This document shows positions 2,777 to 20,606 of a DNA stretch of 22,959 nt, piece by piece. The translations under genes were made by a program, and so were the position numbers. Within the stretch, counting starts at the first letter, position 1. Each line of letters starts with the position of its first letter. Origin of the DNA: a virus (lineage: Duplodnaviria; Heunggongvirae; Uroviricota; Caudoviricetes); the IMG/VR virus record IMGVR_UViG_2645728010_000003. One strand, 5' to 3'. The notes under the pieces were generated by a model. It saw only the letters and a list, made by a program, of their open reading frames with translations. It was not told the DNA's origin and did not search any database.

Positions 2777-2855
2777 TTGCCTGAAATTTATGCTCTTTAA
2801 AATCATGATGTTAGAAGCACTGTTTTTTAACGATGGCGACAAAATGGCGGCAGCG

Positions 2856-3074: not shown

Positions 3075-3164
3075 TTTTCGAGTTCTCCCCATTTTTGCTA
3101 AATTCACAATAATGATACCGCATTATTCCATTTTGAGAACTTAAAAGTTCTCCATTGCGAAGAA

Positions 3165-3565: not shown

Positions 3566-3811
3566 TAACTCTTCTATCAGCGTAACAAGATGCCGCATAC
3601 TGCGCCCCAACCTGTCCAGCTTCCAGACAACCAGCGTGTCTCCTGCCGATAGTGTCCTGAGCAGTTTTTTCAGCCCCGGTCTGTCGGACTTAGTGCCGCT
3701 GATTTTATCCTCAAAAATCCGCTCACATCCCGCGCAGTTCAGCGCACTACGTTGCAAATCGGTGTTCTGGTCATTTGTTGACACGCGTACATAGCCAATA
3801 AGCATGATCAT
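3530..3811 (-). pseudogene. pin: Pin/Gin/Hin-family serine invertase, N-terminal fragment only
   Basis: MLIGYVRVSTNDQNTDLQ catalytic-Ser motif and resolvase core up to about residue 82, then unrelated residues and a stop; the C-terminal HTH domain is missing. Confidence 0.75.
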
Positions 3812-3832
3812 CTCCTTGAATAAAAATCGGGG

Positions 3833-4375
3833 ATGATGCCAGTTAGTCGTAATCGCTGCATTTTCTTAAACGTTGGTTTGGGAGAAGACTCTGCATTACC
3901 TGTTGGGGTGCCTGTTCCGTGGCCTTCAGCCACTCCGCCTACAGGCTGGCTGAAATGCAATGGTGCAGCTTTTTCTGCTGAAGAATACCCGGAACTGGCA
4001 AAGGCTTATCCGACAAATAAATTGCCTGATTTACGTGGTGAGTTTATTCGTGGCTGGGATGATGGGCGTGGTATTGATGCTGGACGTGCCTTGCTAAGTC
4101 TTCAGAATGGAGGAGTGGAATCACACACCCACCAGGGACAGCTCTTCAGAGTCAGTGATTATCGTACAAAAGAAATACCAGCATCAGAAGTTATGGGAAG
4201 AGGATATATTGCAAGCCTGACGCCGGGTGCTGATAGCCCACTTGATTTTGATGATTATTCTGTATCCTCTAATCCAAATGGATATTTTGTCGGGAATCAG
4301 AGAACAACAGCATATGGGGTAAATGAAACCCGCCCACGGAATATTGCATTTAACTATATCGTGAGGGCTGCATAA
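3833..4375 (+). CDS. Alternative tail-fibre C-terminal cassette (Sv'-like), promoterless in the current orientation
   Basis: Tail-fibre tip-like sequence beginning at a conserved GLGE junction that matches GLGD in H; inverted relative to H. Confidence 0.6.
   Translation: MMPVSRNRCIFLNVGLGEDSALPVGVPVPWPSATPPTGWLKCNGAAFSAEEYPELAKAYPTNKLPDLRGEFIRGWDDGRGIDAGRALLSLQNGGVESHTHQGQLFRVSDYRTKEIPASEVMGRGYIASLTPGADSPLDFDDYSVSSNPNGYFVGNQRTTAYGVNETRPRNIAFNYIVRAA
3863..3886. other. hix/gix-like crossover site (TTCTTAAACGTTGGTTTGGGAGAA)
   Basis: Dyad resembling invertase crossover sites; shares a 13-bp core (TTGGTTTGGGAGA) in inverted orientation with 5950-5974 inside H. Confidence 0.45.
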
Positions 4376-4977
4376 TGGATAACGCTGTATTAAATAGCGA
4401 GCTTATTGCCACGAAGGCGGGAAATATTCCTGTCTATAACTATGATGGTGAAACACGGGAATATATTTCCACTTCAAATGAATATCTTTCCGTTGGTGTC
4501 GGCATTCCGGCATGTTCCTGTTTAGATGCCCCTGGCACACATAAGGCTGATTATGCAATCTGCCGTTCTACAGATTTTAACTCATGGGAATATGTGCCAG
4601 ATCATCGCGGTGAAATCGTCTATAACACCGAAACGGGAGATGCCAAAGAAATCACAGCTCCGGGTGATTACCCTGAAAATACAACCACTATCGCACCGTT
4701 AACGCCATACGATAAATGGGATGGTGAGAAATGGGTGACAGATACTGAGGCACAACACGGTGCCGCAGTAGAAGTGGCAGAAGCACAACGCCAGTCACTG
4801 ATTGATGCAGCAATGGCTTCCATTAGTCTGATTCAGCTGAAATTGCAGGCCGGGCGGAAGCTGATGCAGGCAGAAACCACCCGACTTAACATTGTGCTGG
4901 ATTACATTGACGCGGTGACGGCAACAGATACCAGCACCGCGCCGGATGTCATCTGGCCTGAACTGCCGGAGGCGTAG
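4375..4977 (+). CDS. Alternative tail-fibre assembly chaperone (Tfa'/U'-like)
   Basis: 200-aa ORF with Tfa-like conserved C-terminus (DYIDAV ... PDVIWPELP), translationally coupled to the Sv' cassette. Confidence 0.75.
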   Translation: MDNAVLNSELIATKAGNIPVYNYDGETREYISTSNEYLSVGVGIPACSCLDAPGTHKADYAICRSTDFNSWEYVPDHRGEIVYNTETGDAKEITAPGDYPENTTTIAPLTPYDKWDGEKWVTDTEAQHGAAVEVAEAQRQSLIDAAMASISLIQLKLQAGRKLMQAETTRLNIVLDYIDAVTATDTSTAPDVIWPELPEA

Positions 4978-5387: not shown

Positions 5388-7010
5388 TTATTTCCCTACC
5401 GCAATCCAGAAAAATGAACTCATGCTGGCTACTGGTGCTCCGCCCGCTGTTGGAATCATCAGATTTCGGACGCCGCATCCTAAATTAGTTATCGTTGGCG
5501 CTGAAATTACTGGCGACTGAACTACGTTAGGAAGCGATGCCTGCTGAGGACCAAATCCCACATACATCGGGTATGCAGAGAACGCGACAGGAAACGTAAT
5601 AAAGATCTCTCCAGTTGATGATGGATTGGCTGCCCCCCACTGAATAATCAGACCTGACGGTAATTTTTGCCAGCCAGGGCTGGTCAGGCTGGATGTGAAG
5701 TCATTCATATCCGGAATCTGATTTGCCCCTGAGCCAACATCCCTTTGAGCCGCACTTTTCAGATCAAGATAAGTTCTTAGTTCAGCCTTATCCTTACCGC
5801 TTAAATCTGTCAGTGTCTGGTCTTTTGGTTGCGCATAGTCTTTTGTTGCCAGACGAACTACTGTATTTGTTCTGGCGAATCGCATATACGGGGCATTGAC
5901 GTTACTACTGTCAAACCCTGCAATTTTACATTCATCACCAATTAATGCATCTCCCAAACCAAGGTATGCGAGAAGACCAGCTACATCCTTTCCACTCAAA
6001 TTAGTCAGCGTATTGTCCAACGGTTGTTTACCTGCCAGCGCATTAAGCATTGTCGTGGCAAAGTTCGGGTCATTCCCCAGCGCCGCAGCCAGTTCGTTCA
6101 GTGTATCCAGTGCAGCAGGTGCAGACCCCACCATTGCCGCAATTGCCGATTTCACAAAAGCCGTGGTGGCAATCTGTGTATTGTTAACCGACTGTGCGGC
6201 AGTGGGGGCTGTTGGCGTTCCGGTGAATGCCGGACTTAACAGCGGCGCTTTCAGTGCCAGCGCATTGTTAATGGTGGTACTGAATTTCGGGTCATTATTA
6301 ATGGCAGCGGCAATTTCTTTCATCGTATCCAGTGTGGCTGGCGCACCATTAATAAGGGCCATCAGTGCCGCCTGAACAAACGCGGTGGTCGCAATCTGCG
6401 TGGTGTTATTCCCCTCCGCTGGCGTTGGCGCTTTGGGTGTTCCGGTCAATGTCGGGCTTTCTTTGGGTGCATACTGTGAATGCGGGTCCGGTGCGGCAAG
6501 ATGTTTTGCCATCTTATCATCCACGAACACCTTCAGCTCCAGTACCTTGTCATCCACATACTTGCGGGTTGCCAGCACGACGGCAGGGTCGATTTTCAGG
6601 GTGATATTGTCCGTGCTGCTGGTAATCAGCACCATGCGCACGGTCTGGGTACGCCCACTGCCTTCAGCCAGTTGCGGCTTATAGCTTTCCGGGCAGTTTC
6701 CCACGGCAATCAATGCCCCGGACTCATCAAACAGGCCCACTTCACGTATCCACCAACCGCCCTCATTTTCAGGGATTACCTGTTCAGCAATAATCTGGCT
6801 ACTGTTCTGCGGGTCGATATAGAGCATATTCAGCGCAGCCCGGCGTTTCTCATTCACCAGTGCAGTCTGCTTTGCATCCGGCGTTGGCAATACTCCGCCG
6901 CCATCGCCGACCGCCATATGGGTAATTTTTAAAGGCACACCGAGCGCGGCGGCGCTGGCAAGTTTCGCCGCGCCAATATCCGTCAGCAGGGTATAAAATT
7001 TTGTGCTCAT
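5388..7010 (-). CDS. H: Tail fibre protein (gpH-like)
   Basis: 540 aa; conserved P2 H-type N-terminus, repeated NxxALxxKAPL / TGTPTAP collar motifs, variable C-terminus. Confidence 0.9.
   Translation of the reverse strand: MSTKFYTLLTDIGAAKLASAAALGVPLKITHMAVGDGGGVLPTPDAKQTALVNEKRRAALNMLYIDPQNSSQIIAEQVIPENEGGWWIREVGLFDESGALIAVGNCPESYKPQLAEGSGRTQTVRMVLITSSTDNITLKIDPAVVLATRKYVDDKVLELKVFVDDKMAKHLAAPDPHSQYAPKESPTLTGTPKAPTPAEGNNTTQIATTAFVQAALMALINGAPATLDTMKEIAAAINNDPKFSTTINNALALKAPLLSPAFTGTPTAPTAAQSVNNTQIATTAFVKSAIAAMVGSAPAALDTLNELAAALGNDPNFATTMLNALAGKQPLDNTLTNLSGKDVAGLLAYLGLGDALIGDECKIAGFDSSNVNAPYMRFARTNTVVRLATKDYAQPKDQTLTDLSGKDKAELRTYLDLKSAAQRDVGSGANQIPDMNDFTSSLTSPGWQKLPSGLIIQWGAANPSSTGEIFITFPVAFSAYPMYVGFGPQQASLPNVVQSPVISAPTITNLGCGVRNLMIPTAGGAPVASMSSFFWIAVGK
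5950..5974. other. Second crossover site, inside H at the constant/variable junction
   Basis: TCTCCCAAACCAAGGTATGCGAGAA; inverted partner of the 3863-3886 site; encodes LAYLGLGDA in H. Confidence 0.45.
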
Positions 7011-7612
7011 GGATTCACTCTCATTGTGTCAATAACATGGACCGCCCCGCCTTCATGCGCGGTGCCACCGGAAATAATTGTTTCGTTGATATACGGATAG
7101 ATCGTGATTTCTTCGCCAAGATAGCTGGCGGCTCCCACCCAATGCGGGCCGCTGGTCTGCAGGTTGATGGACATGCCGATCATGTGACGGCTGCATGGTT
7201 TGGCATCGCTTATCAGTCGCTCAAGTTCCAGATAGGTATCTTCAGTGATGCCCTGGTCCTGCACGCCGATATCCAGACGAAACGTGCCCGGTGTCTCTCC
7301 GGTCTGCCACCACTCAATAATGCGGATCAGAAAGCCGAACGGCTCCACCACCCGCCGCACGGCACTGGTGGTCCCTTTATGCTGATGAATATAAAAAGCA
7401 TCCTTCACCACCTGGCGCTTGACACTTTCTGTCCAGTCCTCGTCCCAGCGATCCACAGAGAACGCCCAGGCGAGATAAGGCAGGAAACTGACCGGACAGG
7501 TTGCCGGATTCCACAAGTCACGAAGCGGCACCTGCAGATCAGAAATCCCGCTGCAGGTTTGCGCCAGTCGGCGCTCCAGTGGTGTTGAACCCGGTGGCAG
7601 CAGACTATTCAT
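7007..7612 (-). CDS. I: Baseplate protein (gpI-like)
   Basis: Conserved gpI-like residues (LWNP.TCP ... LPYLAWAFSVDRWDE ... GTFRLDIGV). Confidence 0.85.
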   Translation of the reverse strand: MNSLLPPGSTPLERRLAQTCSGISDLQVPLRDLWNPATCPVSFLPYLAWAFSVDRWDEDWTESVKRQVVKDAFYIHQHKGTTSAVRRVVEPFGFLIRIIEWWQTGETPGTFRLDIGVQDQGITEDTYLELERLISDAKPCSRHMIGMSINLQTSGPHWVGAASYLGEEITIYPYINETIISGGTAHEGGAVHVIDTMRVNP

Positions 7613-8513
7613 CCGTTCCTCCGTTGGTTACGCTCCACTGCGTACATGATGCCGCCTGTGTTTTGTTCAGGACCACATCCGCCAGAGGAGAAGCCAGCTC
7701 CACACGCTGCACACCCTCAACATGCAAGGCGGCAAAGATGGCGCTACGGCGAATATCCCGACCAAGACGCGTCTGACTGGCGATGTACTTCTGCAGGCTG
7801 GCTTTTGCCGCTGCCATTACCGGCTCTGCTTCCGGTCCCGGATAGAGAAAAATGGTGGCTTCCACGCGATACGGGATGATTTCTGCGCTGCGAACCGTCA
7901 GACGGTCAGCCACCGGGCGGACGTTCTCACTGTTCAGGGCTTTTTCCACCACATCCAGCAGGTCTTTTTCTGCTGTTCCGTCGCCTTCACGGCTAAGGAC
8001 AGTCAGTACCACCTCTGCAGGTGCCGGACTGGTTGCACTGGCATCCGCCACCCGACCGTCGGCGCTTCGGGCATGAAATTCATAGGCTGCAGTTGGCCCC
8101 GCAACTGAAAGCCCTTCAAAGGCTGCAGGCACACGCAGGCGTAACGCTTCATCGCTTTCCATCACAGCCGCAACGGGCGGCACAGCGTCATTATCAGCAG
8201 GCGTCACCGTCAGGCGTTTCACGTTGTAGTTGGCAGCGAGCTGGTCAAGATCGCCGCCCATCGCGTAAGCCACCATCACCGCCTGCGCGGCTTCGTTAAT
8301 GCGCTGGCGCAGAAGCAACTCACGGTAAGCATTCTCCTGCAGCAATTTGGTGACGGGTTCAGATTCCAGTTCCAGCGTGCGGATCACGGCTTCCTGCTCA
8401 TCTTTCGGATGAAGCGCAACAAATTCGGCCTTGCGTTCGGCAAGCAACGTCTCAAAGTCCGGCACATCGACAATCTGCGGCGCAGGCAACTGCGAAAGGT
8501 CAATCACTGCCAT
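7605..8513 (-). CDS. J: Baseplate protein (gpJ-like)
   Basis: 302 aa from the internal Met (MAVIDLSQLPAP...); the track ORF has a 13-codon upstream extension. Confidence 0.88.
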   Translation of the reverse strand: MAVIDLSQLPAPQIVDVPDFETLLAERKAEFVALHPKDEQEAVIRTLELESEPVTKLLQENAYRELLLRQRINEAAQAVMVAYAMGGDLDQLAANYNVKRLTVTPADNDAVPPVAAVMESDEALRLRVPAAFEGLSVAGPTAAYEFHARSADGRVADASATSPAPAEVVLTVLSREGDGTAEKDLLDVVEKALNSENVRPVADRLTVRSAEIIPYRVEATIFLYPGPEAEPVMAAAKASLQKYIASQTRLGRDIRRSAIFAALHVEGVQRVELASPLADVVLNKTQAASCTQWSVTNGGTDE

Positions 8514-8859
8514 TCTCTGCTCCTGTTGATACGGAAAGGGAAACAGGCACACCGTTATTACGCCGCCCGGTCAGTCCCACCACCATTGAACCGTCAAAAT
8601 TGCTGTTAATGGTGATGGAATCCAGCGTCAGCCGTGGCTCCCAGCGACTCAGCGCCACATACACTGCCGACATGACCTGCAGGCGTAACGCCGGATTTTG
8701 TGGCTGGTCTATCAGTGCCGACAGCAGGGAACCATATTCACGGCGAGCAATGCGGCTACCCTGCGGCGTCAGCAGAATGTCCCGCACCGACTGGCGCAGA
8801 TGGTCAATATCAGTAATGACTTTGCCGCTGGTATTGTTCATCCCGCTATAAAGCGTCAT
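8500..8859 (-). CDS. W: Baseplate wedge protein (gpW-like, gp25 family)
   Basis: 119 aa, position between V and J, gpW-like sequence. Confidence 0.82.
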   Translation of the reverse strand: MTLYSGMNNTSGKVITDIDHLRQSVRDILLTPQGSRIARREYGSLLSALIDQPQNPALRLQVMSAVYVALSRWEPRLTLDSITINSNFDGSMVVGLTGRRNNGVPVSLSVSTGAENGSD

Positions 8860-9434
8860 ACCGGGCCTCCGGTTGTATCGCCGCCTTTCAGGACGCCAGT
8901 ATGCTGATGCGCATCAACCACGATCCCGTTAGAACTCATCGCTCCGCCGCCCTGGGTAACGCCACCATTGATCACCACTTCGCTGTTAATGCGCGTGCGG
9001 TCAGCCTCCAGTACAAACTCACTGGTTTTCATGGTGATGTTATCAGCGGCCTCAATGACCATTGATTTGATGCCCCTGACATACCAGCGCCCGGTGGCGG
9101 GTTCGTATTCAAACCAGCCACCGTCAGGATGTTCTGTCACGCAGGCGTCCGCCGACGTCGACGGTGGTGCGAACTGATTCGAATAGACAGCGGGCAGCGC
9201 AAAGGCAGTCTCCAGATTGCCGCCCAGACTCAGCAGCACCACCTGCTCACCTTCCGATGGTCGCCACCATGTGCGGGCATTACCCGCGCGCAGCGTCAGC
9301 CAGCTGATCCAGTTGGTTTCAAGGTCGCCCGTTTTCACCCGACAAAGCCAGTTTTCCCGGTCCACTTCGGTGACTACACCTATGCGGATCAGATTGGTGA
9401 TAAGGCGCATGATTTCGGTTAGTTGTGCGTTCAT
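8856..9434 (-). CDS. V: Baseplate spike/hub protein (gpV-like)
   Basis: Starts at internal Met (MNAQLTEIMRL...) at 9432-9434; the longer track ORF extends into the divergent moron. Confidence 0.85.
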   Translation of the reverse strand: MNAQLTEIMRLITNLIRIGVVTEVDRENWLCRVKTGDLETNWISWLTLRAGNARTWWRPSEGEQVVLLSLGGNLETAFALPAVYSNQFAPPSTSADACVTEHPDGGWFEYEPATGRWYVRGIKSMVIEAADNITMKTSEFVLEADRTRINSEVVINGGVTQGGGAMSSNGIVVDAHQHTGVLKGGDTTGGPV

Positions 9435-9537
9435 AGATATATGATGACAGCTGAAAACTTGTTTATAACTTCTTGCAAATTGTGGTATCGATGGTACAAA
9501 TTGATAAAAGGATAAAAAACAACCAATAGGTGGATAA

Positions 9538-10344
9538 ATGAGTGTTATGAATCCAATAAGTTCTAATATATTTAATGCTGAATTTTTAAACACCCCGGCA
9601 GCGGCACTTGCCGCATGGATTTCCATTATTGGAGCTGTTATAACTTTGGTGACGATAGTTATAAGAGCACTATTCAAATATAGAAAATCTCATGATGTAA
9701 TTTTGAAAAAATCAGGAATACCTGCGTTTATATTAAATTTTTTTCTTATACGAATATCATTAAAAAGGCTGCCTACTATCACATGGGCTGAAAAATCAAT
9801 CACGGTTCTCTTTTCACTTCTTTTTTTGTGTGCAATTTATATTTTTGGTCCAGTTTTCATCCAAGCCATTAGAACCCCACCAAATAGCACATTGCTTTAT
9901 TGGATAAAGTCCGGTGAATCATTTTATATGTCAAAAAAACTGGCGACTGCAGCTACAATATTAACCACTCCTGATTGGGAAATATCAAAAGATGATTGCG
10001 AAGAGTCATCCTCTGCCAGTACAGAGAAGTACAAATCATTAACTATCGAACATAAAGAAATTCTTTGTAAACTACTAACCACTGATGAAGGGAATACTTA
10101 CATTGATGAAGAAGTCAAGAATTTCGTTAAAGACAAATTCTTTATCTATTCCTTTGCCCCAACAACCATATTTATTCTATTATGGATTTCTTTGGGTTTT
10201 ATACTGACCATTCACTATTCTAAAAAAGTTAGGAAATATATTCTGACTGAACAAAAAAATGCAATTCATTGGGCATATGGTGAATTCAAGACAGAAGGAA
10301 TCTATTCAATATATCACGAGTTAGAACGTAAGACTCACCATTAA
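9538..10344 (+). CDS. AT-rich moron: polytopic membrane protein of unknown function
   Basis: 268 aa, about 4 predicted TM helices plus a charged soluble domain; AGGTGGA Shine-Dalgarno 5 nt upstream; low GC against a GC-rich late operon; opposite strand to flanking V and S. Confidence 0.7.
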   Translation: MSVMNPISSNIFNAEFLNTPAAALAAWISIIGAVITLVTIVIRALFKYRKSHDVILKKSGIPAFILNFFLIRISLKRLPTITWAEKSITVLFSLLFLCAIYIFGPVFIQAIRTPPNSTLLYWIKSGESFYMSKKLATAATILTTPDWEISKDDCEESSSASTEKYKSLTIEHKEILCKLLTTDEGNTYIDEEVKNFVKDKFFIYSFAPTTIFILLWISLGFILTIHYSKKVRKYILTEQKNAIHWAYGEFKTEGIYSIYHELERKTHH

Positions 10345-10732
10345 GACCCAACAAACGACGCTCTGCGTAACGCACTTCCGGTCCTTTGCGGCTGACGCGA
10401 TCGCGCAGGCCATAATGGTGAACGCGGGCAATGCGCTGCACCTTACTTTCAAACTGTACGCTGGCAGAGTCGGCGCTGGCGGCGGTTTTCAGGTATTTGG
10501 TGGTGCGCAGCTTTGCAAACATCTGACGTTTGATGCGGCCTTTTTTACTGCGCGCCGTGACCTTGCGCGGTTCATAACTGCTGCCATCTGGATTGCGCTG
10601 CATCCTGATATTCTGCTGCTGTGTCCGGCGCAGTTCCTGCGCCAGCTGGCGCATCATGCGGCTTCTTGCGACTGGTTCCAGATTCGCCAGTAAGGCACTA
10701 AGCCAGTCGTCCACCTTCTGCAGTTCAGCCAC
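10286..10732 (-). CDS. S: Tail completion protein (gpS-like), C-terminus altered by the adjacent insertion
   Basis: P2 S-like N-terminus (MAELQKVDDWLSALLANLEP ... QQQNIRMQRNPDGS); 3' end overlaps the moron 3' end. Confidence 0.8.
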   Translation of the reverse strand: MAELQKVDDWLSALLANLEPVARSRMMRQLAQELRRTQQQNIRMQRNPDGSSYEPRKVTARSKKGRIKRQMFAKLRTTKYLKTAASADSASVQFESKVQRIARVHHYGLRDRVSRKGPEVRYAERRLLGLNGESYVLTRDILNRFLLS

Positions 10733-11177
10733 GTTTCACCGTCCACATTTCTTCAGGTTCATCGGGTTCTGCTACAGCTTCAACGCTCGACACACTGCCG
10801 TCAGTGCTGACCAGCACACGTTCCGTCAGATGCAGGTTAAGGCTGATATCACAGACATCGTTGCGCAGAATATCCACCTCAAAGGTAAATAGTTTTTCCC
10901 GTAACGCCGGGTTATTGATGGCATCGGGCTGGTTATCCCGCAGCCACAGCAAAACCGGGGCCATCAGCAGATTCTGGTCGCCGCTGAAATCCTCAATCAC
11001 CGCGTTCAGGGTGTAACGGTACTCCCACGACATGGAGCTGGCCCCCGTGGCAACCAGCGAACCGTTATCCACAAACAGATGCAGTTTGTCCGGGTTATTG
11101 CGGACATAAGGCACCGCTTTATTGAGGGCGTGGCGCAGGGATTGTGGTTTGTTCACTGTTTCGCTCCTGACACGCAA
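10725..11177 (-). CDS. R: Tail completion protein (gpR-like); true start may be GTG at 11156
   Basis: gpR-like sequence (LHLFVDNGS ... RYTLNAVIEDF ... DILRNDVCDISLNLHLTERV). Confidence 0.8.
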   Translation of the reverse strand: MRVRSETVNKPQSLRHALNKAVPYVRNNPDKLHLFVDNGSLVATGASSMSWEYRYTLNAVIEDFSGDQNLLMAPVLLWLRDNQPDAINNPALREKLFTFEVDILRNDVCDISLNLHLTERVLVSTDGSVSSVEAVAEPDEPEEMWTVKRG

Positions 11178-11409
11178 TAATCATGTCCACTTTGTCTGCA
11201 CAGACCGCCCAGGCGGCCTCCGTTTCATCCAGCAACGCGTTCAGATCACCGTTAGTGCGCGGCGTTGCCTGATCCAGCCGACACGGCGTCACTCGCGGAC
11301 AACCACTGACGGTAAGCTGTACCTCCGGTGAGTGCCGGACGTTCCCGCAGCCGGATAATGTCAGCAGGCAAAGGAGTATCAGCCCAGCGGCGTAAATCCT
11401 CGTTCTCAC
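11119..11409 (-). CDS. lysC: o-spanin lipoprotein (LysC/Rz1-like) embedded out of frame in lysB
   Basis: Signal peptide with lipobox LSGC, Pro-rich mature part, 96 aa. Confidence 0.65.
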   Translation of the reverse strand: MRTRIYAAGLILLCLLTLSGCGNVRHSPEVQLTVSGCPRVTPCRLDQATPRTNGDLNALLDETEAAWAVCADKVDMIIACQERNSEQTTIPAPRPQ

Positions 11410-11680
11410 GTTTCAGTTCCTCGATCCGGTGTTGTCGTTGTCTCAGCAGTGCACTGGTCTGTTCTGCTTCGGCATAGAGCCGCGCCTGCTCCCGGTTATT
11501 GGTTTCAGTCAGAATGGACAGGCTGATAAGCTGGCTGTTTTTCTTCGTCAGTTCCTGCGCTTTACTTTTCAGCGCCGCGCGCTGCGTTTCGATGGTGTGG
11601 CTGGCGCTGTTAAGCCGCCACGACTGCCAGCCCAGCGCAACGAGTGCCAGCGCCACCACTACTGCCAGCGCACGCGTCAT
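11252..11680 (-). CDS. lysB: i-spanin (LysB/Rz-like)
   Basis: N-terminal TM helix then coiled-coil periplasmic region; 142 aa. Confidence 0.7.
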   Translation of the reverse strand: MTRALAVVVALALVALGWQSWRLNSASHTIETQRAALKSKAQELTKKNSQLISLSILTETNNREQARLYAEAEQTSALLRQRQHRIEELKRENEDLRRWADTPLPADIIRLRERPALTGGTAYRQWLSASDAVSAGSGNAAH

Positions 11681-11816
11681 AGTCCAGCTCCTTTAAGGCA
11701 CCAGGCCATCTCCCGCGCACGGCGGTTATCCAGCCCCTGATTAAACACACCTTTTACATAAACCCAGCGCGGCAACTGTCGGCACGCATCTGCCCAGCGC
11801 CGCTGATTGAGCAATT

Positions 11817-12569
11817 TCACCAGTGTGGAACTACAGGCATTGCCCGTTGCTGCTTCTGCAGAGCAGACTCCAGTTCAGACAGGCGTTCTTCCTGCTCAGA
11901 CAGAGATTTTTCGGTTCGCGCGCTCAGGTTTTGCTGCTCAGTGGCGACCAGCTCCACGGCCTTATGCACATCAGAGAACCGGGCGTCATCGGACTGCTCT
12001 TTTTTGGTGAACAGCGCCGTGACGCGGGAAAACAGGGACGGTTTGTCGTCCTGGACTTCCTCCAGTTCGATCACCGTTTCCTCTGCAGCGGTAAAGAGAT
12101 TGGCAGGATTCTGCTTGCGGTTTGCCAGCGGGTTATGGGCTGCACTGGCGCTGAATGTCAGCATTTCAGTGCCCAGACTGGCAGGGTCATCAGTGGCAGC
12201 CAGGCCGACCAGGTAGGCTTTGCCCGTATCAGCGAACTTCGGGCTGACTTCCATAGAGGTGAATAATTTCTGGCCTTTTTTCACCAGTTCCACCAGGGAC
12301 TCCGTTGGCTCAACGTCGGCATACAGCGCCATCTTGCCTGCCAGCGGACCTTCCGTGATTTCCTCAGCAAACAGCGCCGTCACCTTGCCGTAGCGGTTAA
12401 AGGTGCTGTCCGGCAGATAAGACTTGATGTGCTCAAGGTTAATCAGCGCGGTATACACCGCCGGGTTGTAGCTGGCTGCCATCTGTTCCAGCCATTCACG
12501 CTGGATTTCGCGTCCGTCGGTGGTGGCACCTTCCACCCCGATGCGAAAACGCTTTGCTTTCACTGTCAT
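11817..12569 (-). CDS. O: Capsid scaffold protein (gpO-like), C-terminally truncated
   Basis: RFRIGVEG ... INLEH ... YLVGLAATDDPASLGTE motifs of gpO; about 30 aa shorter than P2 O, and 137 bp from lysB with N, M, L, X, Y, K and lysA absent. Confidence 0.85.
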   Translation of the reverse strand: MTVKAKRFRIGVEGATTDGREIQREWLEQMAASYNPAVYTALINLEHIKSYLPDSTFNRYGKVTALFAEEITEGPLAGKMALYADVEPTESLVELVKKGQKLFTSMEVSPKFADTGKAYLVGLAATDDPASLGTEMLTFSASAAHNPLANRKQNPANLFTAAEETVIELEEVQDDKPSLFSRVTALFTKKEQSDDARFSDVHKAVELVATEQQNLSARTEKSLSEQEERLSELESALQKQQRAMPVVPHW

Positions 12570-12647
12570 GAGCCGTGCTCCGTTAAAAAAAACTTACTGG
12601 AGCCTTATGGTTGCGGTGATGGGGGTAGTGAAACAATGCGCGGTATT

Positions 12648-12665
12648 TGTACCGACAACCACACA
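12648..12665. promoter_or_regulatory. TGT-N12-ACA dyad (possible Ogr-dependent late promoter element for O)
   Basis: Dyad centred about 87 nt upstream of the O start codon in the divergent O/P intergenic region; motif alone is weak evidence. Confidence 0.3.
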
Positions 12666-12711
12666 AACCGCAGGCGGGGAAAGCCTTCATTCAAGGCTGT
12701 AGGTTTGTGCC

Positions 12712-14478
12712 ATGAACACCACACTGACACCCGCAGATCTCGATCCCCGTCGGCAGGCCATGCTGCTGTACTTTCAGGGATACCGCGTAGCCCGCATTGC
12801 TGAAATGCTGGGCGAGAAAGTTGCAACCGTTCACAGCTGGAAAAAACGCGACAAGTGGGGTGACTATGGGCCGCTGGATCAGATGCAGCTCACCACCGCC
12901 GCACGCTACTGCCAGCTCATTATGAAGGAGCACAAAGAAGGGAAAGATTTCAAAGAGATTGACCTGCTGGCGCGCCAGTCGGAGCGCCATGCGCGGATCG
13001 GCAAGTTTAACAATGGCGGCAACGAAGCCGACTTAAACCCTAACGTCGCCAACCGCAACAAAGGCCCGCGTCGTCAGCCGGAAAAGAACGTTTTCACCGA
13101 TGAACAGATTGAGAAGCTGGAAGAAATCTTCCATTCCTCCATGTTCAACTACCAGCGCCACTGGTGGGAAGCCGGAAAAACCAACCGCATCCGCAACCTG
13201 CTGAAGTCACGCCAGATCGGCGCGACCTTCTATTTTGCCCGTGAAGCCCTGATTGACGCCCTGCTAACCGGGCGTAACCAGATTTTCCTTTCCGCCAGCA
13301 AGGCACAGGCCCACGTCTTTAAGCAGTACATCATCGACTTCGCCAAAGAAGTGGAGGTGGAGCTGAAAGGCGATCCGATAGTGCTTCCTAACGGGGCCAC
13401 GCTGTACTTCCTCGGCACCAATGCCCGCACGGCCCAGAGTTACCACGGCAACCTGTATCTGGATGAATATTTCTGGATACCGAAATTCCAAGAGCTGCGC
13501 AAAGTGGCTTCCGGTATGGCTATTCACAAAAAATGGCGACAAACCTATTTTTCCACGCCATCCAGCCTGACACACAGTGCTTATCCGTTCTGGTCCGGTG
13601 CGCTGTTCAACCGTGGGCGCAACAAAGCCGACAAGGTGGACATCGACCTGTCCCACAGCAATCTGGCCCCCGGCCTGCTGTGCACAGACGGGCAATACCG
13701 CCAGATAGTCACCGTGGAAGATGCGGTGCGCGGCGGCTGTAACCTGTTCGACCTCGACCAGCTACGCATGGAGTACAGCCCGGACGAATACCAGAACCTG
13801 CTGATGTGCGAGTTCGTGGACGATCTCGCGTCCGTGTTCCCGCTCAGCGAGCTGCAAGCGTGCATGGTGGACAGTTGGGAAATCTGGACCGACTTTCATG
13901 CACTGGCCCTGCGCCCGTTTGGCTGGCGCGAAGTGTGGATCGGTTATGACCCGGCAAAAGGTACGCAGAACGGCGACAGTGCCGGATGCGTGGTGGTGGC
14001 ACCGCCAGCCGTGCCGGGTGGTAAGTTCCGCATTCTTGAGCGTCACCAGTGGCGCGGGATGGACTTCCGCGCCCAGGCTGACGCCATCAAAAAACTGACC
14101 GAGCAGTACAACGTGACCTACATCGGCATCGACTCGACAGGTGTCGGCCACGGGGTTTACGAGAACGTGAAAGCGTTTTTTCCAGCCGTCCGGGAGTTTG
14201 TCTACAACCCCAACGTTAAAAACGCCCTGGTACTCAAGGCCTACGACATTATCAGTCACCGTCGTCTGGAGTTTGACGCCGGACACACCGACATAGCGCA
14301 GTCATTTATGGCAATCCGTCGCGCCACCACCGCCAGCGGCAACCGCCCAACCTATGAAGCCAGCCGCAGCGAAGAAGCCAGCCATGCCGATCTGGCCTGG
14401 GCAACAATGCACGCACTGTTTAACGAACCGCTGCAGGGCGAGTCCGCCAATACCAGCAATATTGTGGAGATTTTTTGA
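12712..14478 (+). CDS. P: Terminase large subunit (gpP-like)
   Basis: 588 aa; P2 gpP-like sequence with ATPase and nuclease regions. Confidence 0.92.
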   Translation: MNTTLTPADLDPRRQAMLLYFQGYRVARIAEMLGEKVATVHSWKKRDKWGDYGPLDQMQLTTAARYCQLIMKEHKEGKDFKEIDLLARQSERHARIGKFNNGGNEADLNPNVANRNKGPRRQPEKNVFTDEQIEKLEEIFHSSMFNYQRHWWEAGKTNRIRNLLKSRQIGATFYFAREALIDALLTGRNQIFLSASKAQAHVFKQYIIDFAKEVEVELKGDPIVLPNGATLYFLGTNARTAQSYHGNLYLDEYFWIPKFQELRKVASGMAIHKKWRQTYFSTPSSLTHSAYPFWSGALFNRGRNKADKVDIDLSHSNLAPGLLCTDGQYRQIVTVEDAVRGGCNLFDLDQLRMEYSPDEYQNLLMCEFVDDLASVFPLSELQACMVDSWEIWTDFHALALRPFGWREVWIGYDPAKGTQNGDSAGCVVVAPPAVPGGKFRILERHQWRGMDFRAQADAIKKLTEQYNVTYIGIDSTGVGHGVYENVKAFFPAVREFVYNPNVKNALVLKAYDIISHRRLEFDAGHTDIAQSFMAIRRATTASGNRPTYEASRSEEASHADLAWATMHALFNEPLQGESANTSNIVEIF

Positions 14479-15503
14479 TGGGAAAGAGTAAGAAAAACCG
14501 CGCTGCGGCGACGAACCAGATCCAGCATAAAAACCAAACTTCAGCCGAAGCATTCAGCTTCGGTGATCCCGTTCCTGTTCTGGACCGCCGCGAATTACTG
14601 GACTATGTGGAATGCGTAAAGATGGACCGCTGGTATGAGCCACCCGTAAGTTTTGACGGACTGGCGCGAACATTCCGCGCCGCCGTACACCACAGTTCAC
14701 CGATTGCAGTAAAGTGCAACATTCTGACCAGCACCTACATCCCTCACCCGCTGCTCAGCCAGCAGGCGTTTTCACGTTTTGTGCAGGACTATCTGGTTTT
14801 TGGTAACGCCTACCTGGAGAAACGCACGAACCGATTCGGTGAAGTTATCGCCCTTGAGCCTGCGCTGGCAAAATACACCCGACGCGGATTAGACCTAGAT
14901 ACCTACTGGTTTGTGCAATACGGCATGACCACGCAGCCGTATCAGTTCACGAAAGGCAGCATTTTTCATCTGATGGAACCGGACATCAACCAGGAGATCT
15001 ACGGCCTGCCCGGCTATCTTTCTGCCATCCCATCCGCCCTGCTCAACGAGTCCGCCACGCTGTTCCGCCGAAAGTATTACATTAACGGTAGTCATGCAGG
15101 CTTCATCATGTACATGACCGATGCCGCGCAGAACCAGGAAGATGTGAACAACCTCCGCAATGCGATGAAAAGTGCCAAAGGCCCTGGCAACTTCCGCAAC
15201 CTGTTTATGTACTCGCCTAATGGTAAAAAAGACGGACTTCAGATTATCCCGTTGTCAGAAGTCACAGCGAAGGATGAGTTTCTGAATATCAAGAACGTGA
15301 GCCGTGATGACATGATGGCGGCACACCGCGTGCCGCCGCAAATGATGGGAATTATGCCTAATAATGTCGGGGGGTTTGGGGATGTGGAGAAGGCTAGCAA
15401 GGTATTCGTAAGAAACGAATTGATGCCCCTGCAGAAACGATTGCAGGAACTAAATAACTGGTTGGACGAAGAAGTGCTCAATTTTTCAACCTATGAGCTT
15501 TAG
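14475..15503 (+). CDS. Q: Portal protein (gpQ-like)
   Basis: 342 aa; gpQ-like sequence; overlaps the P stop by 4 nt. Confidence 0.92.
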   Translation: MMGKSKKNRAAATNQIQHKNQTSAEAFSFGDPVPVLDRRELLDYVECVKMDRWYEPPVSFDGLARTFRAAVHHSSPIAVKCNILTSTYIPHPLLSQQAFSRFVQDYLVFGNAYLEKRTNRFGEVIALEPALAKYTRRGLDLDTYWFVQYGMTTQPYQFTKGSIFHLMEPDINQEIYGLPGYLSAIPSALLNESATLFRRKYYINGSHAGFIMYMTDAAQNQEDVNNLRNAMKSAKGPGNFRNLFMYSPNGKKDGLQIIPLSEVTAKDEFLNIKNVSRDDMMAAHRVPPQMMGIMPNNVGGFGDVEKASKVFVRNELMPLQKRLQELNNWLDEEVLNFSTYEL

Positions 15504-15511
15504 TTTTAAAA

Positions 15512-15531
15512 CGAAGACCATTAGGTCTTCG
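15512..15531. terminator. Bidirectional hairpin shared by convergent Q and retron RT
   Basis: cgaagacc-atta-ggtcttcg with T-rich flanks on both strands; the RT stop codon lies in the loop. Confidence 0.6.
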
Positions 15532-16483
15532 CTTTATTTAAAGGGTTCTTTCCATATTTTTTTTCTAATTTGCTAATATAAGTTATTAATCTCCTATGGC
15601 TTTTTGAATCCACACTTAAAATAAATGACAACCATCCCCTAACGTGTTCTATCTCAGAAGACTTACCGCAAAATATATGATGTATCTTTGCTCTAATTTC
15701 TTTATATTTTTCTCTACCTATCCCAACTTTCTCTTGTGAAATAACTAAACCTGTAACTTTCCTCTGACTACGAGGCCCACTAATACAAGTTTTTTTTGAG
15801 TTAATAACCAATCCTTCACTTGGGATTATAGAAAATAAAAAATCACGTGCTTTAACAACCTTTTTCATAGACTGTGCAGATAAGGTGAGATCATCGGCAT
15901 ATCTCGTATATATCAAGCCCCGACTACCTGCATAACCCTGAATACGATAATCAAGTTTAGAACATATTAGATTAGCTAATTTAGGTGATGATGGAGCACC
16001 TTGTGGTAGCAGATTTTTATAACAACATATTTTTGTCAAAACTGAAGATATTAGTCGATTATAACCAAGAGAATGGAACACTCCAAAAACTTTGTTAGCA
16101 GTTAAACTTGGGAAAAAATCCTCCAAATCAATATTCAGTATAAAGTTTGCCCCAATATGCGGGGTAGCATTATTCAAAATAGATTGGTGCTTTTCAAATC
16201 CAATAGAAAAAGGAGATGACGACAGTTTATCTAAAATGTTACGTAGAACCCATCCTTGTAAGGCTTTAAGTTCTCGAGAAGGTTGGTAAATGGTTCTCAT
16301 TCTCTTCTCTGGGCCTTTCTTTTCTACAGTGTAGATCCTATAGCGAAAATCAGCTGTATAGATTAACAACCGAAGTGTTTCAACAGATATGCGAGTCGCC
16401 TTAGACATGTCATGCAAATTGTTCATGACAGGTAGGCCGAGATTTCTCAATCTAAAAGTGTTCAAATATTCAGCGGATTTCAT
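15521..16483 (-). CDS. ret: Retron reverse transcriptase (Ec86/Eco1-type)
   Basis: 320 aa; RT motifs including LPQGAPSSP and YTRYADDLTLS (YADD box); directly downstream of the msr-msd locus; matches my memory of the Ec86 RT. Confidence 0.95.
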   Translation of the reverse strand: MKSAEYLNTFRLRNLGLPVMNNLHDMSKATRISVETLRLLIYTADFRYRIYTVEKKGPEKRMRTIYQPSRELKALQGWVLRNILDKLSSSPFSIGFEKHQSILNNATPHIGANFILNIDLEDFFPSLTANKVFGVFHSLGYNRLISSVLTKICCYKNLLPQGAPSSPKLANLICSKLDYRIQGYAGSRGLIYTRYADDLTLSAQSMKKVVKARDFLFSIIPSEGLVINSKKTCISGPRSQRKVTGLVISQEKVGIGREKYKEIRAKIHHIFCGKSSEIEHVRGWLSFILSVDSKSHRRLITYISKLEKKYGKNPLNKAKT

Positions 16484-16489
16484 GAAAGT

Positions 16490-16658
16490 TGCGCACCCTT
16501 ACGTCAGAAAAAACGGGTTTCCTGGTTGGCTCGGAGAGCATCAGGCGATGCTCTCCGTTCCAACAAGGAAAACAGACAGTAACTCAGATTCAATGCAGGA
16601 TGCCGAAACAACATCCAGAGGTTGACCTTAATGATAAACCTCTCGCTAAGGGTGCGCA
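16490..16658 (-). ncRNA. msr-msd: Retron msr-msd non-coding RNA (msDNA template)
   Basis: Flanked by 12-bp inverted repeats a2 (16490-16501, TGCGCACCCTTA) and a1 (16647-16658); internal perfect 10-bp hairpin at 16533-16556; minus-strand sequence matches what I recall of Ec86 msr/msd. Confidence 0.9.
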
Positions 16659-17569
16659 TACGGAATCTTATCATAGTTAAATGTTGATTTTCTACGGTTT
16701 TCAAAATTCATAATCTCAAGCCGCAATCGGTCAAGTGTCTTTCTATCAAAGACGCTCCTAACATAGCTAGCCCCCAAAGCAGTGACCTGATAACCATCAG
16801 TCATTTGAAGTATTTTTCGTTCATTTATTAGACGAGAAACAACGGATCTAACAATAATTTTAGATAAAACATCATCTTGCTTTATCGCTTTAAAAGCTAG
16901 TTCACACAGTGTGCGGTAGTTGACACTATCCAGTAAATAGATACAAGGCAATAGAAACCGCTCTGCGTATAATATATTTCCAATATCTTTTGATACTTTA
17001 TTTTCTTTCCTAACCTTCTTAATAGATGCCATTAATTTTTTATATAATCGTAATTTTCTGGCAACATCAATAGATGAATCACACATTTCTTTTAGTTCAT
17101 TTGAACTACAACGCAAAACAGATTTTGAATTAAACTTACGCAACAGGCGAACAGGACCATAGTTAATAAAGCTACGTTTTGATTTAAATTTTGCATCTTG
17201 AATGCAAATCAACTTTCTCCTTAAGTTTTCATTATTAGAGAACGCACCAAGCTCTGTGAAAGACCCCGGACTTTCAGGAAATAAAATTATTACATCGACA
17301 GCTTCAGCCAGAATATTTTCTAAACTTAAAAGGCTATGCTGCCCTTGACCAGCCAAAAGATCATCAAATAGATCTTCTGGATAAAATATATCAACATCAC
17401 TGAACTTTGCTAAAAATTGTGATAATTGATGACGCCAAGATTGATGATTAGCAACGTCACCACCACATAGAAAAATGGTTATTTTAATATTAGCTCCTCG
17501 ATAGAAGCCTTTCTTTGTGAGATGTCCTATAAGCTGTTGTTGCTGCTCATCGGTAAATTTTTTATTCAT
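16646..17569 (-). CDS. Retron effector, nucleoside 2-deoxyribosyltransferase-like N-terminal domain plus C-terminal domain
   Basis: 307 aa directly upstream of msr; Rossmann-like IFLCGG ... ILFPESPGSFTELG pattern; stop codon overlaps a1; GGGGAG RBS. Confidence 0.8.
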   Translation of the reverse strand: MNKKFTDEQQQQLIGHLTKKGFYRGANIKITIFLCGGDVANHQSWRHQLSQFLAKFSDVDIFYPEDLFDDLLAGQGQHSLLSLENILAEAVDVIILFPESPGSFTELGAFSNNENLRRKLICIQDAKFKSKRSFINYGPVRLLRKFNSKSVLRCSSNELKEMCDSSIDVARKLRLYKKLMASIKKVRKENKVSKDIGNILYAERFLLPCIYLLDSVNYRTLCELAFKAIKQDDVLSKIIVRSVVSRLINERKILQMTDGYQVTALGASYVRSVFDRKTLDRLRLEIMNFENRRKSTFNYDKIPYAHP

Positions 17570-17642
17570 AATCTCCCCGCTTTTTTTTCTACTTTATACA
17601 TCAAGTTATGAATAGATCCAATCTCCATACCACATGGCGCGC

Positions 17643-17662
17643 GCTCGTATCCCCGCCACGCC
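17643..17662 (-). other. cos-like remnant (13 of 19 nt of the remembered 186 cohesive end)
   Basis: Minus strand reads GGCGTGGCGGGGATACGAGC; the first 13 nt equal the 186 cos start as I remember it (GGCGTGGCGGGGAAAGCAT). Confidence 0.35.
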
Positions 17663-17684
17663 TGCCCGCTTTATGCAGTGGTTT

Positions 17685-17786
17685 TCATGCACATGCATAA
17701 CATGAGCAAAAGCCCGCCAGTTCTGGCGGATCTGAGCAAAGACGATCCTCAATCGATCATGCGATTTCATGCAGCATAGTCATGCA
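17685..17786. repeat. Cluster of five to six (T)CATGCA motifs
   Basis: Copies at about 17685, 17692, 17757, 17767 and 17780, plus variants; function unknown. Confidence 0.35.
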
Positions 17787-18041
17787 CTGTCAAGGAAGTG
17801 AAAATCCGTATCTGAATGGCCACTTGAAAAACGGATCATACGGGTTTACAAAGATGAATGTTCGCTGTGAACGGGAAGCGGAAGTTAACTTTCAGATAAC
17901 ATAATCCATATGCACGAGAACCTCTAAAATAGAATGGGACACCTAAGCGGGGTACTTACAACGATTCTTTCCATATTCACAGTTAACACTCTGTTTGGCG
18001 TATTTTTATTCAAATAGCAAACACCAATAAAAGGAGTTTCC

Positions 18042-18377
18042 ATGAACAATATTCCCCCTATACCACAGTTAGGAATTTATGTCTCAAAAATCGATCCCAC
18101 CCTACGTATCACTGTAACCGATGTTGATATTGTTGATGGTGAGGATGATTCTCCTGATGATGAATTGTTTTATTTAGTCCACTGGATCGAGGGGGAAGAT
18201 GAAAGTGATATGACAGCAATGGGATTTGAGCTAGACCCAGTAGAGTGGCAGGCTTTCGTTGAATCTGAGCAATTAGTGTTTGAGCGTGATCCGTACATGG
18301 ATTCAATCCCCGAAAATTCAAACTTGGCAAAGATTCGGGATTTTCTCATGAAGACTAAACAGAATGATCATTCGTAA
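18042..18377 (+). CDS. Strongly acidic small protein of unknown function
   Basis: 111 aa with 26 Asp/Glu against 7 Lys/Arg; AAGGAG RBS 6 nt upstream; only + strand gene in the A-to-Q interval. Confidence 0.6.
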   Translation: MNNIPPIPQLGIYVSKIDPTLRITVTDVDIVDGEDDSPDDELFYLVHWIEGEDESDMTAMGFELDPVEWQAFVESEQLVFERDPYMDSIPENSNLAKIRDFLMKTKQNDHS

Positions 18378-18569
18378 GTGTAAGCATCCATCAGGAAAAT
18401 GGTTTTGTAAGTGAATCATCAACTTTTAGAGAGTCTCAGACACTCCCACTTCTGCTTCTGACACAAAGCGGACGATCACTTATCAAAATAACCGCCCACC
18501 TTACGCCTTATTTCACTCATTGCCCAAACTAGCCCCCATCAGAATGAATCCTCCTGGGGGCAACATTTC

Positions 18570-18803
18570 TTAATGCAGCCAGCTGTCGTCCTCCCACACC
18601 TTCTGCATAATTTTCATCACTTGTTTTCTTTCTTCATCCAGTTGCAGTCCGGTTAGTTCCACACCGTTAGAGCTACCTTTGCGAATGCGAATTACCGTTT
18701 TGGGATACAGGGGGCGCAGATTGCGGTAAAGCTCGGATTCAAGGGCGTCCAGGGTAGACTGGCTAATCTTCTGCTCTTTATCGATCATTATTTCAATGCG
18801 CAT
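18570..18803 (-). CDS. DinI-family protein (Tum C-terminal-like)
   Basis: 77 aa from the internal Met with GAGGTGA RBS; MRIEIMIDKE ... LDALESEL ... QKVWEDDSW resembles DinI. Confidence 0.7.
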   Translation of the reverse strand: MRIEIMIDKEQKISQSTLDALESELYRNLRPLYPKTVIRIRKGSSNGVELTGLQLDEERKQVMKIMQKVWEDDSWLH

Positions 18804-18813
18804 AAAAGTCACC

Positions 18814-19002
18814 TCAGCTGATGACATCCATTGAGCGGTTGTATTCGTGGCTTCTGATTTTTGCCATGAGTTCATCAGTCAATTCAGAAACCCACTGCAG
18901 AGCCAGCCCCTTCTCTTCATCACTACACTCACTAGCCGCTACAAGCTTAAGAAAAAAATCAATGCGCTGGAGCTTCAAAGACTCCAAAAAATAGTCCTGC
19001 AT
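18814..19002 (-). CDS. Small ORF upstream of the DinI-like gene (possible Tum N-terminal part)
   Basis: 62 aa; strong AGGAGG RBS 4 nt upstream; downstream of the LexA box. Confidence 0.5.
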   Translation of the reverse strand: MQDYFLESLKLQRIDFFLKLVAASECSDEEKGLALQWVSELTDELMAKIRSHEYNRSMDVIS

Positions 19003-19042
19003 CTTTCCTCCTATGACACCAAAACAATACTGTATACATAAC

Positions 19043-19062
19043 CACTGTTTATATTTACAGTA
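19043..19062. promoter_or_regulatory. LexA (SOS) box, CTGT-N8-ACAG
   Basis: cACTGTttatatttACAGta overlapping an AT-rich -10-like region about 40 nt upstream of the 62-aa ORF. Confidence 0.6.
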
Positions 19063-19154
19063 TATAATAATCTTACTGATGTAAAACGTTTTTTTACGTT
19101 CATCGGCCTGATATGCCTGGTATTATTAAGAGCACGAATTGTCAACCCGCGTAA

Positions 19155-20606
19155 TTAATACAGGTTCCGCCACTTATCATCTTCCTTCAGACGCTGGTTC
19201 CGATAGAAGATACGCAGGCCTGCTCCTGACGGAATACTGCCGCCGCGAAGGAGCAAATCGACTTCTTTCTCGCTGCCATCAAATCCCCTGGACTTCAGTT
19301 CATAGACGAGCTGCTGTCGCTGATGGTCTGTAATTCGCTGTTTGTAGTCTTTACGCCGTTTCGGTTTCACCTGGCGTAACCTTGCAGCCAGTTCCCGGCG
19401 CTCTTTTTTGCTCATACTGTGCAGGTAATTGTGCAACTCCTTGTCATTCATACGGGTAATATCCGTTCTGGAGTCCCCATCAGCTGATTTGTCTTTCCCT
19501 TGTTGGTTCAAATTTTCAGCAAGGGGACAGTTATTGCCACGAGTCCAAGGGGCGCAAGCGCCCTGGTCGGCTGCCGCCTCCTGAACGTCAACGGCCTTAC
19601 GAACCATTTTCCACTTCACCGCATGAGTGCAGATCTTGCCCTCTGCAATGGGTGACCAGATGCCATAAATACGAATACCGTGATCGCCATATGCGGTCGG
19701 TTCTTCGTTGATTTCATAAGCAGTTCTGATGAGGTGATATTTGCGGGGAACCAGTACGCCGCCCTGCTTCATGATGTAGGTGGCAAAACAACCAGCATCA
19801 GCAGCAGCCAGGATTGCATCAAGACGCGGGTTATCCAGTACCGGCGCACCTGCTTTTTTGTCACCCTGTTGCCTTGCCGCCTGACCAGCCAGCAATCGCA
19901 GTTCACGGTAAGCCTGACGCCCCGGAATGCCAAAGAAGCGGAATTGCTGAACACGATGCAGAGACGCCCAGGCATTAACGTATTCAGCGTTATCACGCAG
20001 GGATTTACCCGTTTCCTTGCTGATCTCCCCAGCCAGACCACGCCCGTCAATGTTCTTACTGATGTATTTCGCGATATAGCTTGTTGGCGTACCTTTGCGC
20101 GGGTTTATCAGCTCAGACTTAAAGCGTGGTCCCGTGTTATTGCCCAGCTCCTCGCGGTCTTCACGGATGGCAAACTTACGCAGTAATGCAGTGATGGCGC
20201 GGCGGTCTTTTTTACGCATGAAACACATGAGATGCCAGTGCACAGTACCGTCATGATGCGGCTCAGCTACCGCACCTGCAGCAACACGCCCGATCTCTGC
20301 GGTTGCACTCATGACGTAATGTGGCAGTTTCTCTTTTGCCACCTCATTAATCGGTACGCATGGCAGGCAGTGAATCTGAGCCAGAAAACCATCTACCAGC
20401 GTTGAATCTTCAGTCAGATCGGTAAGCAGCCAGATTTCTGGTGCGGTTAATAAATGAGGTTGCGCTGGGTTCAACTTGTTCCGCAGAATCTGCACATTCA
20501 TGCCAGCACGTTCTGCCAGTTGCACCAGGTTGTGGCGCAATGCGAATGCACGACAGGCTTCATCAAAATGTGGATGTTTGGAAACTTGGTAATCAAACAT
20601 GGTCAA
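19155..20606 (-). CDS. A: Chimeric ORF: CII-like N-terminus fused to a rolling-circle initiator (gpA-like) C-terminal part; probably a deletion product
   Basis: First ~115 aa resemble phage regulatory protein CII ([18 protein letters not shown] ... [24 protein letters not shown]); the rest carries HUH-like HWH and YIAKYISK tyrosine motifs; 483 aa, well short of an intact gpA. Confidence 0.75.

Follow-up and report, generated by a model that had tools for sequence, protein, structure and literature searches.

A 3,146-bp deletion joins the capsid scaffold gene O to an endolysin fragment in the retron-Ec86 prophage remnant of Escherichia coli B

Why does the capsid scaffold gene O of this prophage end early and lie so close to the spanin gene lysB, with the genes that P2 carries between the two gone from the element? 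The DNA analyzed, referred to here as the window, is 22,959 bp long, and sequence comparison places it, gapless and with 100% identity, in the genome of E. coli BL21(DE3) (NC_012971.2 872499-895457, reverse orientation). An earlier note on this DNA had located a deletion scar within positions 11681-11860, and the breakpoint reported here, 11847|11848, falls inside that interval. The substance of the deletion is already known, being visible in the RefSeq annotation and in the literature. The remnant described there is the same DNA, its endolysin pseudogene is already annotated, and nothing biological differs. In the literature on the element, with the 2009 J Mol Biol B-genome papers outside the scope, we found neither the base-level breakpoint, nor the nine-codon tail of the truncated O gene (O'), nor an intact counterpart. 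The contribution made here is a base-resolution account of why the BL21 retron-Ec86 prophage cannot form particles or lyse its host. BL21 is the most widely used protein-expression strain; otherwise, the scar is of little consequence.

The element and its intact relatives

The BL21 element is a P2-like prophage remnant at the rybB site, between rcdA and ybjL, with retron Ec86 (Eco1) aboard. It has been listed as 'Rybb*B (P2)', the carrier of retron Ec86 (PMC3032704), and a 2026 preprint refers to a 'P2-like prophage remnant' encoding retron Eco1 (bioRxiv 10.64898/2026.09.05.749240). Judged from its genes, it appears to be a P2-like, Elveevirus-like prophage of the Peduoviridae, belonging to the E. 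coli B lineage (BL21, REL606, and relatives). The RefSeq gene order runs through portal, terminase, GPO family, endolysin pseudogene, lysB, lysC, tail-completion, DUF6216, and baseplate genes. Save for the deleted block, the late region of the window is collinear with those of Cartapus and 20A24, and Q-P diverge from O, which is the P2-type synteny. A cos-like match at window 17633-17690 lies beside Q, as cos does in P2-like prophages. A complete head module (O, N, M, L) and a lysis cassette of holin and endolysin were not found in the window, and the element reads as a defective remnant rather than a functional P2-like member. Two other assignments were rejected. A tailocin does not fit, since the sheath and tube genes are deleted as well, nor does a satellite, since the element has P2-type int, CI, ogr, P, and Q and its gene order follows that of a full phage.

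Among isolated phages, the closest relative is Escherichia phage Cartapus (NC_070909.1, Elveevirus, Peduoviridae), whose late region is about 95% identical to that of B and which carries DUF4145 where B has the retron. The prophage of strain 20A24 (NZ_CP147044.1, wastewater, Japan) is closer still, with a late-region identity of 99.4-100%. It is intact and has the same rcdA-ybjL site, gene order, retron, and DUF6216 gene as B. Both references keep the 3,146 bp considered here, together with the other two blocks deleted in B. The immunity and int region of 20A24 differs from that of B (86-96% identical); the 20A24 prophage is not the literal ancestor of the B prophage, and only the late region serves to infer the ancestral state.

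P2 itself has a late O operon of O N M L X Y K lysA lysB lysC R S, which is divergent from P-Q, like that of B. However, its O, lysB, lysC, R, and S products share 35-50% amino-acid identity with their B homologues, and at this level P2 is unusable as a nucleotide reference. P2 further differs in having lysA, and no similarity could be detected between its endolysin (K) and the endolysin remnant of B (E>0.6). The breakpoint mapping by alignment that the earlier note had proposed was therefore possible not with P2, which is too divergent, but with Cartapus and then 20A24, which place it at 11847|11848.

Apparently intact 'retronphages' occur in wild E. coli, namely in 20A24, VG1046-3E9 (farm, Switzerland), and JNE082640 (human, Japan). 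These wild retronphages have retron Ec86 between cos and the portal gene, along with a full set of head, lysis, and tail genes. They could be of use in studying the spread and regulation of retron Eco1 within the phage that naturally carries it. The reference locus is as follows.

NZ_CP147044.1 2806463-2848913 (L006): 20A24 retronphage locus; related loci are L010, L007, and L008

The deletion junction and its origin

The features on either side of the junction are listed below in window coordinates.

11847..11848, minus strand: deletion junction, equivalent to NC_012971.2 883610|883611
11817..12569, minus strand: O', truncated scaffold/protease gene, an ORF of 250 aa (Pfam PF05929 Phage_GPO)
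11677..11847, minus strand: endolysin pseudogene remnant, the 56 C-terminal codons plus stop of a 171-aa phage lysozyme (PF00959)
11252..11680, minus strand: lysB (Rz-like i-spanin), intact, 142 aa, with an AAGGAG Shine-Dalgarno sequence 8 nt upstream
11119..11367, minus strand: lysC (Rz1-like o-spanin), intact; RefSeq annotation and Pfam PF23793 LysC, E=6e-16
10286..11156, minus strand: tail-completion genes R and S, intact, the rest of the O operon downstream
12712..15503, plus strand: P (large terminase, 588 aa) and Q (portal), intact; Terminase_6N/6C/Terminase_5 and Phage_portal
12570..12711, no strand assigned: divergent P/O intergenic region, with TGT-N12-ACA at 12665..12648 (minus)

The two references give the same picture. 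In blastn against Cartapus (L001), window 15494..11847 aligns with positions 887..4534 and window 11848..10383 with 7681..9145. Against the 20A24 locus (L006), window 20275..11847 aligns with 17475..25904 and window 11848..5950 with 29051..34949. The unmatched block is exactly 3,146 bp in both. The flanks shared with 20A24 match perfectly over no fewer than 850 nt on the side of O and about 1,600-1,650 nt on that of lysB. The breakpoint comes from deterministic alignment and not from statistics.

Read along the minus strand, base 11848 is the final base attributable to O (codon 241) and base 11846 is the first unambiguous endolysin base. The bases 11848-11847 ('AA') form a 2-nt microhomology and are the sole bases common to both parental sites. 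On this strand, the junction reads ...CAGAAGCAGCAA|CGGGCAATGCC..., and it joins codon 241 of the 277 codons of O to codon 115/116 of the 171 codons of the endolysin gene. The deleted block comprises the 3' end of O (36 codons), N (major capsid), M (small terminase), L (head completion), the tail gene X, the holin gene, and the 5' two thirds of the endolysin gene (115 codons). The scar is one real, clean 3,146-bp deletion. Among the genes that the earlier note had counted as missing (N, M, L, X, Y, K, and lysA), N, M, L, X, and the holin gene are indeed gone, whereas K is two-thirds deleted and lysA was not lost here. Searching the window by tblastn with Cartapus or P2 proteins did not find N, M, L, X, or Y (best E about 0.05-1). 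The earlier expectation that neither N, M, and L nor the missing lysis genes would turn up elsewhere in the element was thus borne out by tblastn of the window.

This arrangement is almost certainly explained by one 3,146-bp illegitimate-recombination deletion in the late O operon, running between the two codons given above. We propose that the event was of the end-joining or replication-slippage type, requiring at most 2 nt of homology. Slippage and simple end joining are indistinguishable here because a 2-nt microhomology is too little to separate them. By a rough estimate, microhomology of 2 or more nt is found in about 16% of random junctions, so the label 'microhomology-mediated' would be a weak one. 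The proposed deletion would account for the loss of everything from the C-terminus of O through the holin gene, and of the 115 N-terminal codons of the endolysin with its catalytic domain. It would have left behind O' as a chimeric ORF and the 3' end of a dead endolysin gene, with lysB, lysC, R, and S intact behind the original late promoter region.

A deletion through a mobile element, or by homologous or site-specific recombination between IS copies, invertase sites, or longer repeats, might also be considered, given the abundance of IS1 in the B lineage and the DNA invertase gene of the prophage. However, three-way alignments with Cartapus and 20A24 showed neither an IS sequence nor a target-site duplication at the junction, nor any filler, and the parental sites share the 'AA' only. 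The invertase gene, moreover, is truncated by a separate deletion, and its recombination sites are about 8 kb away. We consider an origin of this kind very improbable.

What remains of O, the endolysin, and the late operon

O' consists of 241 native codons followed by nine out-of-frame endolysin codons (RAMPVVPHW) and a stop, and 36 native C-terminal residues are lost. The earlier note had O ending about 30 codons early, in agreement with the lengths measured. O' is 27 codons below the 277-aa O of Cartapus and 20A24 and 34 below P2 gpO (284 aa), and no full-length O was found. The match of O' to PF05929 (E=2e-105, 352.5 bits vs a gathering cut-off of 33.6) covers profile positions 2-236 of 268. 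Over P2 gpO residues 6-233, it is 48% identical and retains the TDGR, INLEH, and TSME motifs at the aligned positions. INLEH and TSME are the motifs around H48 and S107 of P2 gpO, so the protease residues appear to be kept in O'; besides S107, the protease triad of P2 gpO presumably comprises D19 and H48. The protease-dead mutant of P2 gpO is S107A, and the protein is divided into a protease (residues 1-141) and a C-terminal scaffolding domain (residues 195-284), the latter being 'absolutely required' for procapsid assembly (PMC7552001). In O', the protease domain and the middle region are present, and the C-terminal scaffolding domain is incomplete.

In RefSeq, O' (WP_000216259.1) is listed as a plain 'GPO family capsid scaffolding protein', without a pseudogene or truncation flag. 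The alignments show that this annotated 'GPO family' protein is a truncated chimera, its final nine codons being derived from out-of-frame endolysin DNA. This is one of two corrections that follow from the breakpoint; the other concerns the spacer between O' and lysB, which is an endolysin 3' fragment and not lysA.

The endolysin remnant is identical at all 56 of its 56 residues to residues 116-171 of the 20A24 lysozyme and 98% identical to the Cartapus protein. It matches the Phage_lysozyme profile PF00959 (E=9e-11) at positions 81-125 of 125. It is not a full-length phage lysozyme, as residues 1-115, with the N-terminal catalytic part and the start codon, are deleted. RefSeq annotates a 'glycoside hydrolase family protein, incomplete, missing N-terminus' as a pseudogene at exactly 11677..11847. 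The stop codon of the remnant overlaps the start of lysB (ATGA), as in the intact loci of 20A24, Cartapus, and JNE082640.

The gap from the O' stop (11817) to the lysB ATG (11680) is 136 bp (11681-11816). The close spacing described earlier stands, although the figure of 137 bp does not. O does not directly abut lysB, as had been stated, since the 3' end of the endolysin gene (56 codons) lies between them; it fills the whole spacer, and the O' ORF runs into it for its last 31 nt. The suggestion that the spacer might encode a C-terminal remnant of lysA is likewise rejected. P2 LysA gave no tblastn match in 11677-11860, and the 3' end of the 20A24 endolysin gene covers the entire spacer at 100% identity.

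There is no lysA-like gene between the endolysin gene and lysB in 20A24, Cartapus, or JNE082640. A 125-aa gene of the 'DNZ54_00345 family' occupies the lysA position in VG1046-3E9 (L007 18220-18597) and FDAARGOS_433 (L009 16646-17023). Since this gene is present in some relatives and absent from 20A24, Cartapus, JNE082640, and B, the lysis cassette is mosaic within this phage group.

The structure of the two truncated genes also bears on the direction of the change. If the short form were ancestral, the N-to-K block would be an insertion in the other phages. However, the O of B lacks GPO profile positions 237-268 and ends in an out-of-frame tail, and the endolysin lacks profile positions 1-80, including the start codon, so that both flanks are cut in mid-ORF. 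The order of the full block, in addition, is the same in P2, in Cartapus, and in over 1,000 E. coli genomes. That the short form came first is therefore vanishingly improbable.

Beyond the two truncated genes, the surroundings of the deletion are well preserved. The protein accessions of LysB, LysC, R, S, and V are the same in BL21 and in the intact 20A24, and LysB is 96% identical to Cartapus LysB. The intact, overlapping LysB and LysC genes are predicted to specify an Rz/Rz1-type spanin pair. P2 R and S match the window by tblastn with E=1e-39 and 7e-31, respectively. P and Q equal their 20A24 counterparts in gene length, and they have no capsid to act on. The earlier note had observed that P, Q, the baseplate, the spanins, and the retron are still there; the RefSeq annotation and the alignments confirm this, and they show R and S to be retained too. 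Its statement that the prophage can neither build heads nor lyse the host also agrees with what was found. The head genes and the holin gene are deleted and O and the endolysin are truncated, and both functions would be expected to be lost.

The TGT-N12-ACA sequence in the P/O intergenic region may be an Ogr/Delta activator site serving the late promoters PO and PP, and the P2 record has its activator-binding site in the same P/O intergenic position. With this candidate site in place, the remnant operon O'-'K-lysB-lysC-R-S seems to keep its promoter region, and O', the spanins, R, and S may be transcribable if Ogr is made. It is conceivable that O', having the protease domain and the middle region without the capsid-binding C-terminus, acts as a dominant-negative scaffold/protease against the capsid assembly of superinfecting P2-like phages, making the scar an accidental anti-phage factor. 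For this, the Ogr-responsive late promoter would have to be trans-activated by the superinfecting P2-like phage or by a P4-type satellite, a possibility that arises because O', P, Q, LysB/LysC, R, and S all lie behind such a promoter. We regard such interference as a long shot.

Distribution, age, and the other deletions

The retron block beside the portal gene occurs in 48 of 5,426 complete E. coli genomes, which are 44 B-lineage genomes and four wild isolates. The junction, searched for with a 501-nt spanning query at a coverage of at least 80%, was found in 44 of the 5,426. Its carriers among the 30 matches listed are all of the B lineage (BL21 derivatives, REL606, ATCC 11303, and others), and the count of 44 equals the number of B-lineage genomes with the retron block, NCTC10537 and 'B' included. 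The junction is absent from the four wild retron-bearing strains. The deletion is thus private to the B lineage and older than the split of its sublines. These counts also bear on the possibility of a collapsed or mis-joined contig. An identical junction in 44 independently assembled complete genomes, produced by many laboratories on several platforms, and a base-perfect join without ambiguous bases leave an assembly or sequencing artefact with a negligible probability.

A plain search with the deleted block says nothing about whether B lacks it, since the B genomes are outranked by about 1,000 others. A chimeric query was used instead, consisting of the B retron block and the N-M genes of 20A24, with which the B genomes rank first and any extra copies appear as additional places in a genome. 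With this query, each of the four wild retron-carrying strains showed two places. All 44 of the 44 B-lineage genomes showed a single place, the retron, and no N-M genes elsewhere at the sensitivity of megablast. In BL21(DE3), yegQ and yegR are 330 bp apart, and there is no second P2-like element at this other P2 attachment site. REL606 has a P2-like remnant between yegQ and yegR, which is without P, O, N, M, L, and all lysis genes, P through S being missing.

The right-hand 5.9 kb of the window differs from 20A24 by a single mismatch. This points to a recent deletion and gives no evidence on selection acting on the leftover genes.

Two further scars of the same kind, likewise from clean deletions, are present in the window. 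At the invertase'/'D scar (window 3565-3567), the parental sequences overlap by 3 nt, and 6,906 bp are missing relative to 20A24, with the loss of the tail sheath, tube, E/E', tape-measure, and U genes and the 5' end of D. Measured against JNE082640, the cII'/'A scar (window 20269-20275), with its 7-nt overlap, lacks 4,394 bp, and measured against 20A24 about 3.4 kb; the deletion removes fil, the DUF5347 and DUF2732 genes, a TraR-like gene, the Dam methylase gene, and the 5' end of the gene for replication endonuclease A. The loss of head and lysis functions, to which the earlier note had attributed the defect, stands but is not the sole one, as these two deletions hit tail and replication genes. 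We propose that the three deletions together, one in the O operon and its two siblings in the replication genes and in the tail sheath, tube, and tape-measure genes, would leave a prophage that makes no particles and causes no lysis. Such a prophage would be a passive carrier of retron Ec86/Eco1 and other accessory genes.

Comparable losses are seen in other P2-like prophages. The REL606 element 'P2*B' at yegQ-yegR and the FDAARGOS_433 prophage resemble the B element in that simple internal deletions have cut into two genes and taken out head modules, lysis modules, or both. Their breakpoints, S'/'Q in REL606 P2*B and N'/'L in FDAARGOS_433, are independent of those in B. In FDAARGOS_433 (NZ_CP023899.1; L009 15029-15729), a truncated N is joined to a truncated L and M is lost. 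The second REL606 remnant (NC_012967.1; L005 20410-42348) has a tube'/'D deletion in addition to S'/'Q, and its cargo comprises an ABC-three-component system, an AAA ATPase, and a glycosyltransferase.

The scar in B is an instance of ordinary prophage decay. An adaptive domestication, in which deletions that disarm the killing functions (holin and endolysin, replication, virion release) were selected while the defense cargo (retron Ec86, DUF6216) was kept, would bear on why the scar persists, not on what it is. In its favor, the retron, DUF6216, the immunity repressor, and the integrase have survived all three deletions; a second retron-Ec86 prophage, that of FDAARGOS_433, has its own independent N'/'L deletion; and the other P2-like remnant of REL606 has also lost its head and lysis genes. 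However, P, Q, R, S, V, W, J, I, and H are intact, although they are purposeless without a capsid or a tail tube, and the single mismatch to an intact phage in 5.9 kb of leftover genes is in keeping with a loss that was very recent and unselected. Of the five retron-bearing lineages, furthermore, three are intact in the regions examined, and five are too few for a test of selection. Domestication is therefore unlikely, though it deserves some weight; ordinary decay through illegitimate recombination remains the preferred reading.

Two variable parts of the element deserve mention. The slot between S and V is occupied by orf30 in P2, by a different hypothetical gene in Cartapus, and by a DUF6216 gene in B:

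9538-10344, plus strand: DUF6216 membrane-type protein, 268 aa, in the variable slot between S and V

This DUF6216 gene has been described as low-GC, bound by H-NS, and derepressed in an hns/stpA mutant (bioRxiv 10.64898/2026.09.05.749240). The invertible segment that carries the tail-fibre and tail-fibre-assembly genes (window about 3870-5100) is opposite in orientation to that of 20A24, and, as the invertase gene is truncated, it is presumably frozen in this orientation in B.
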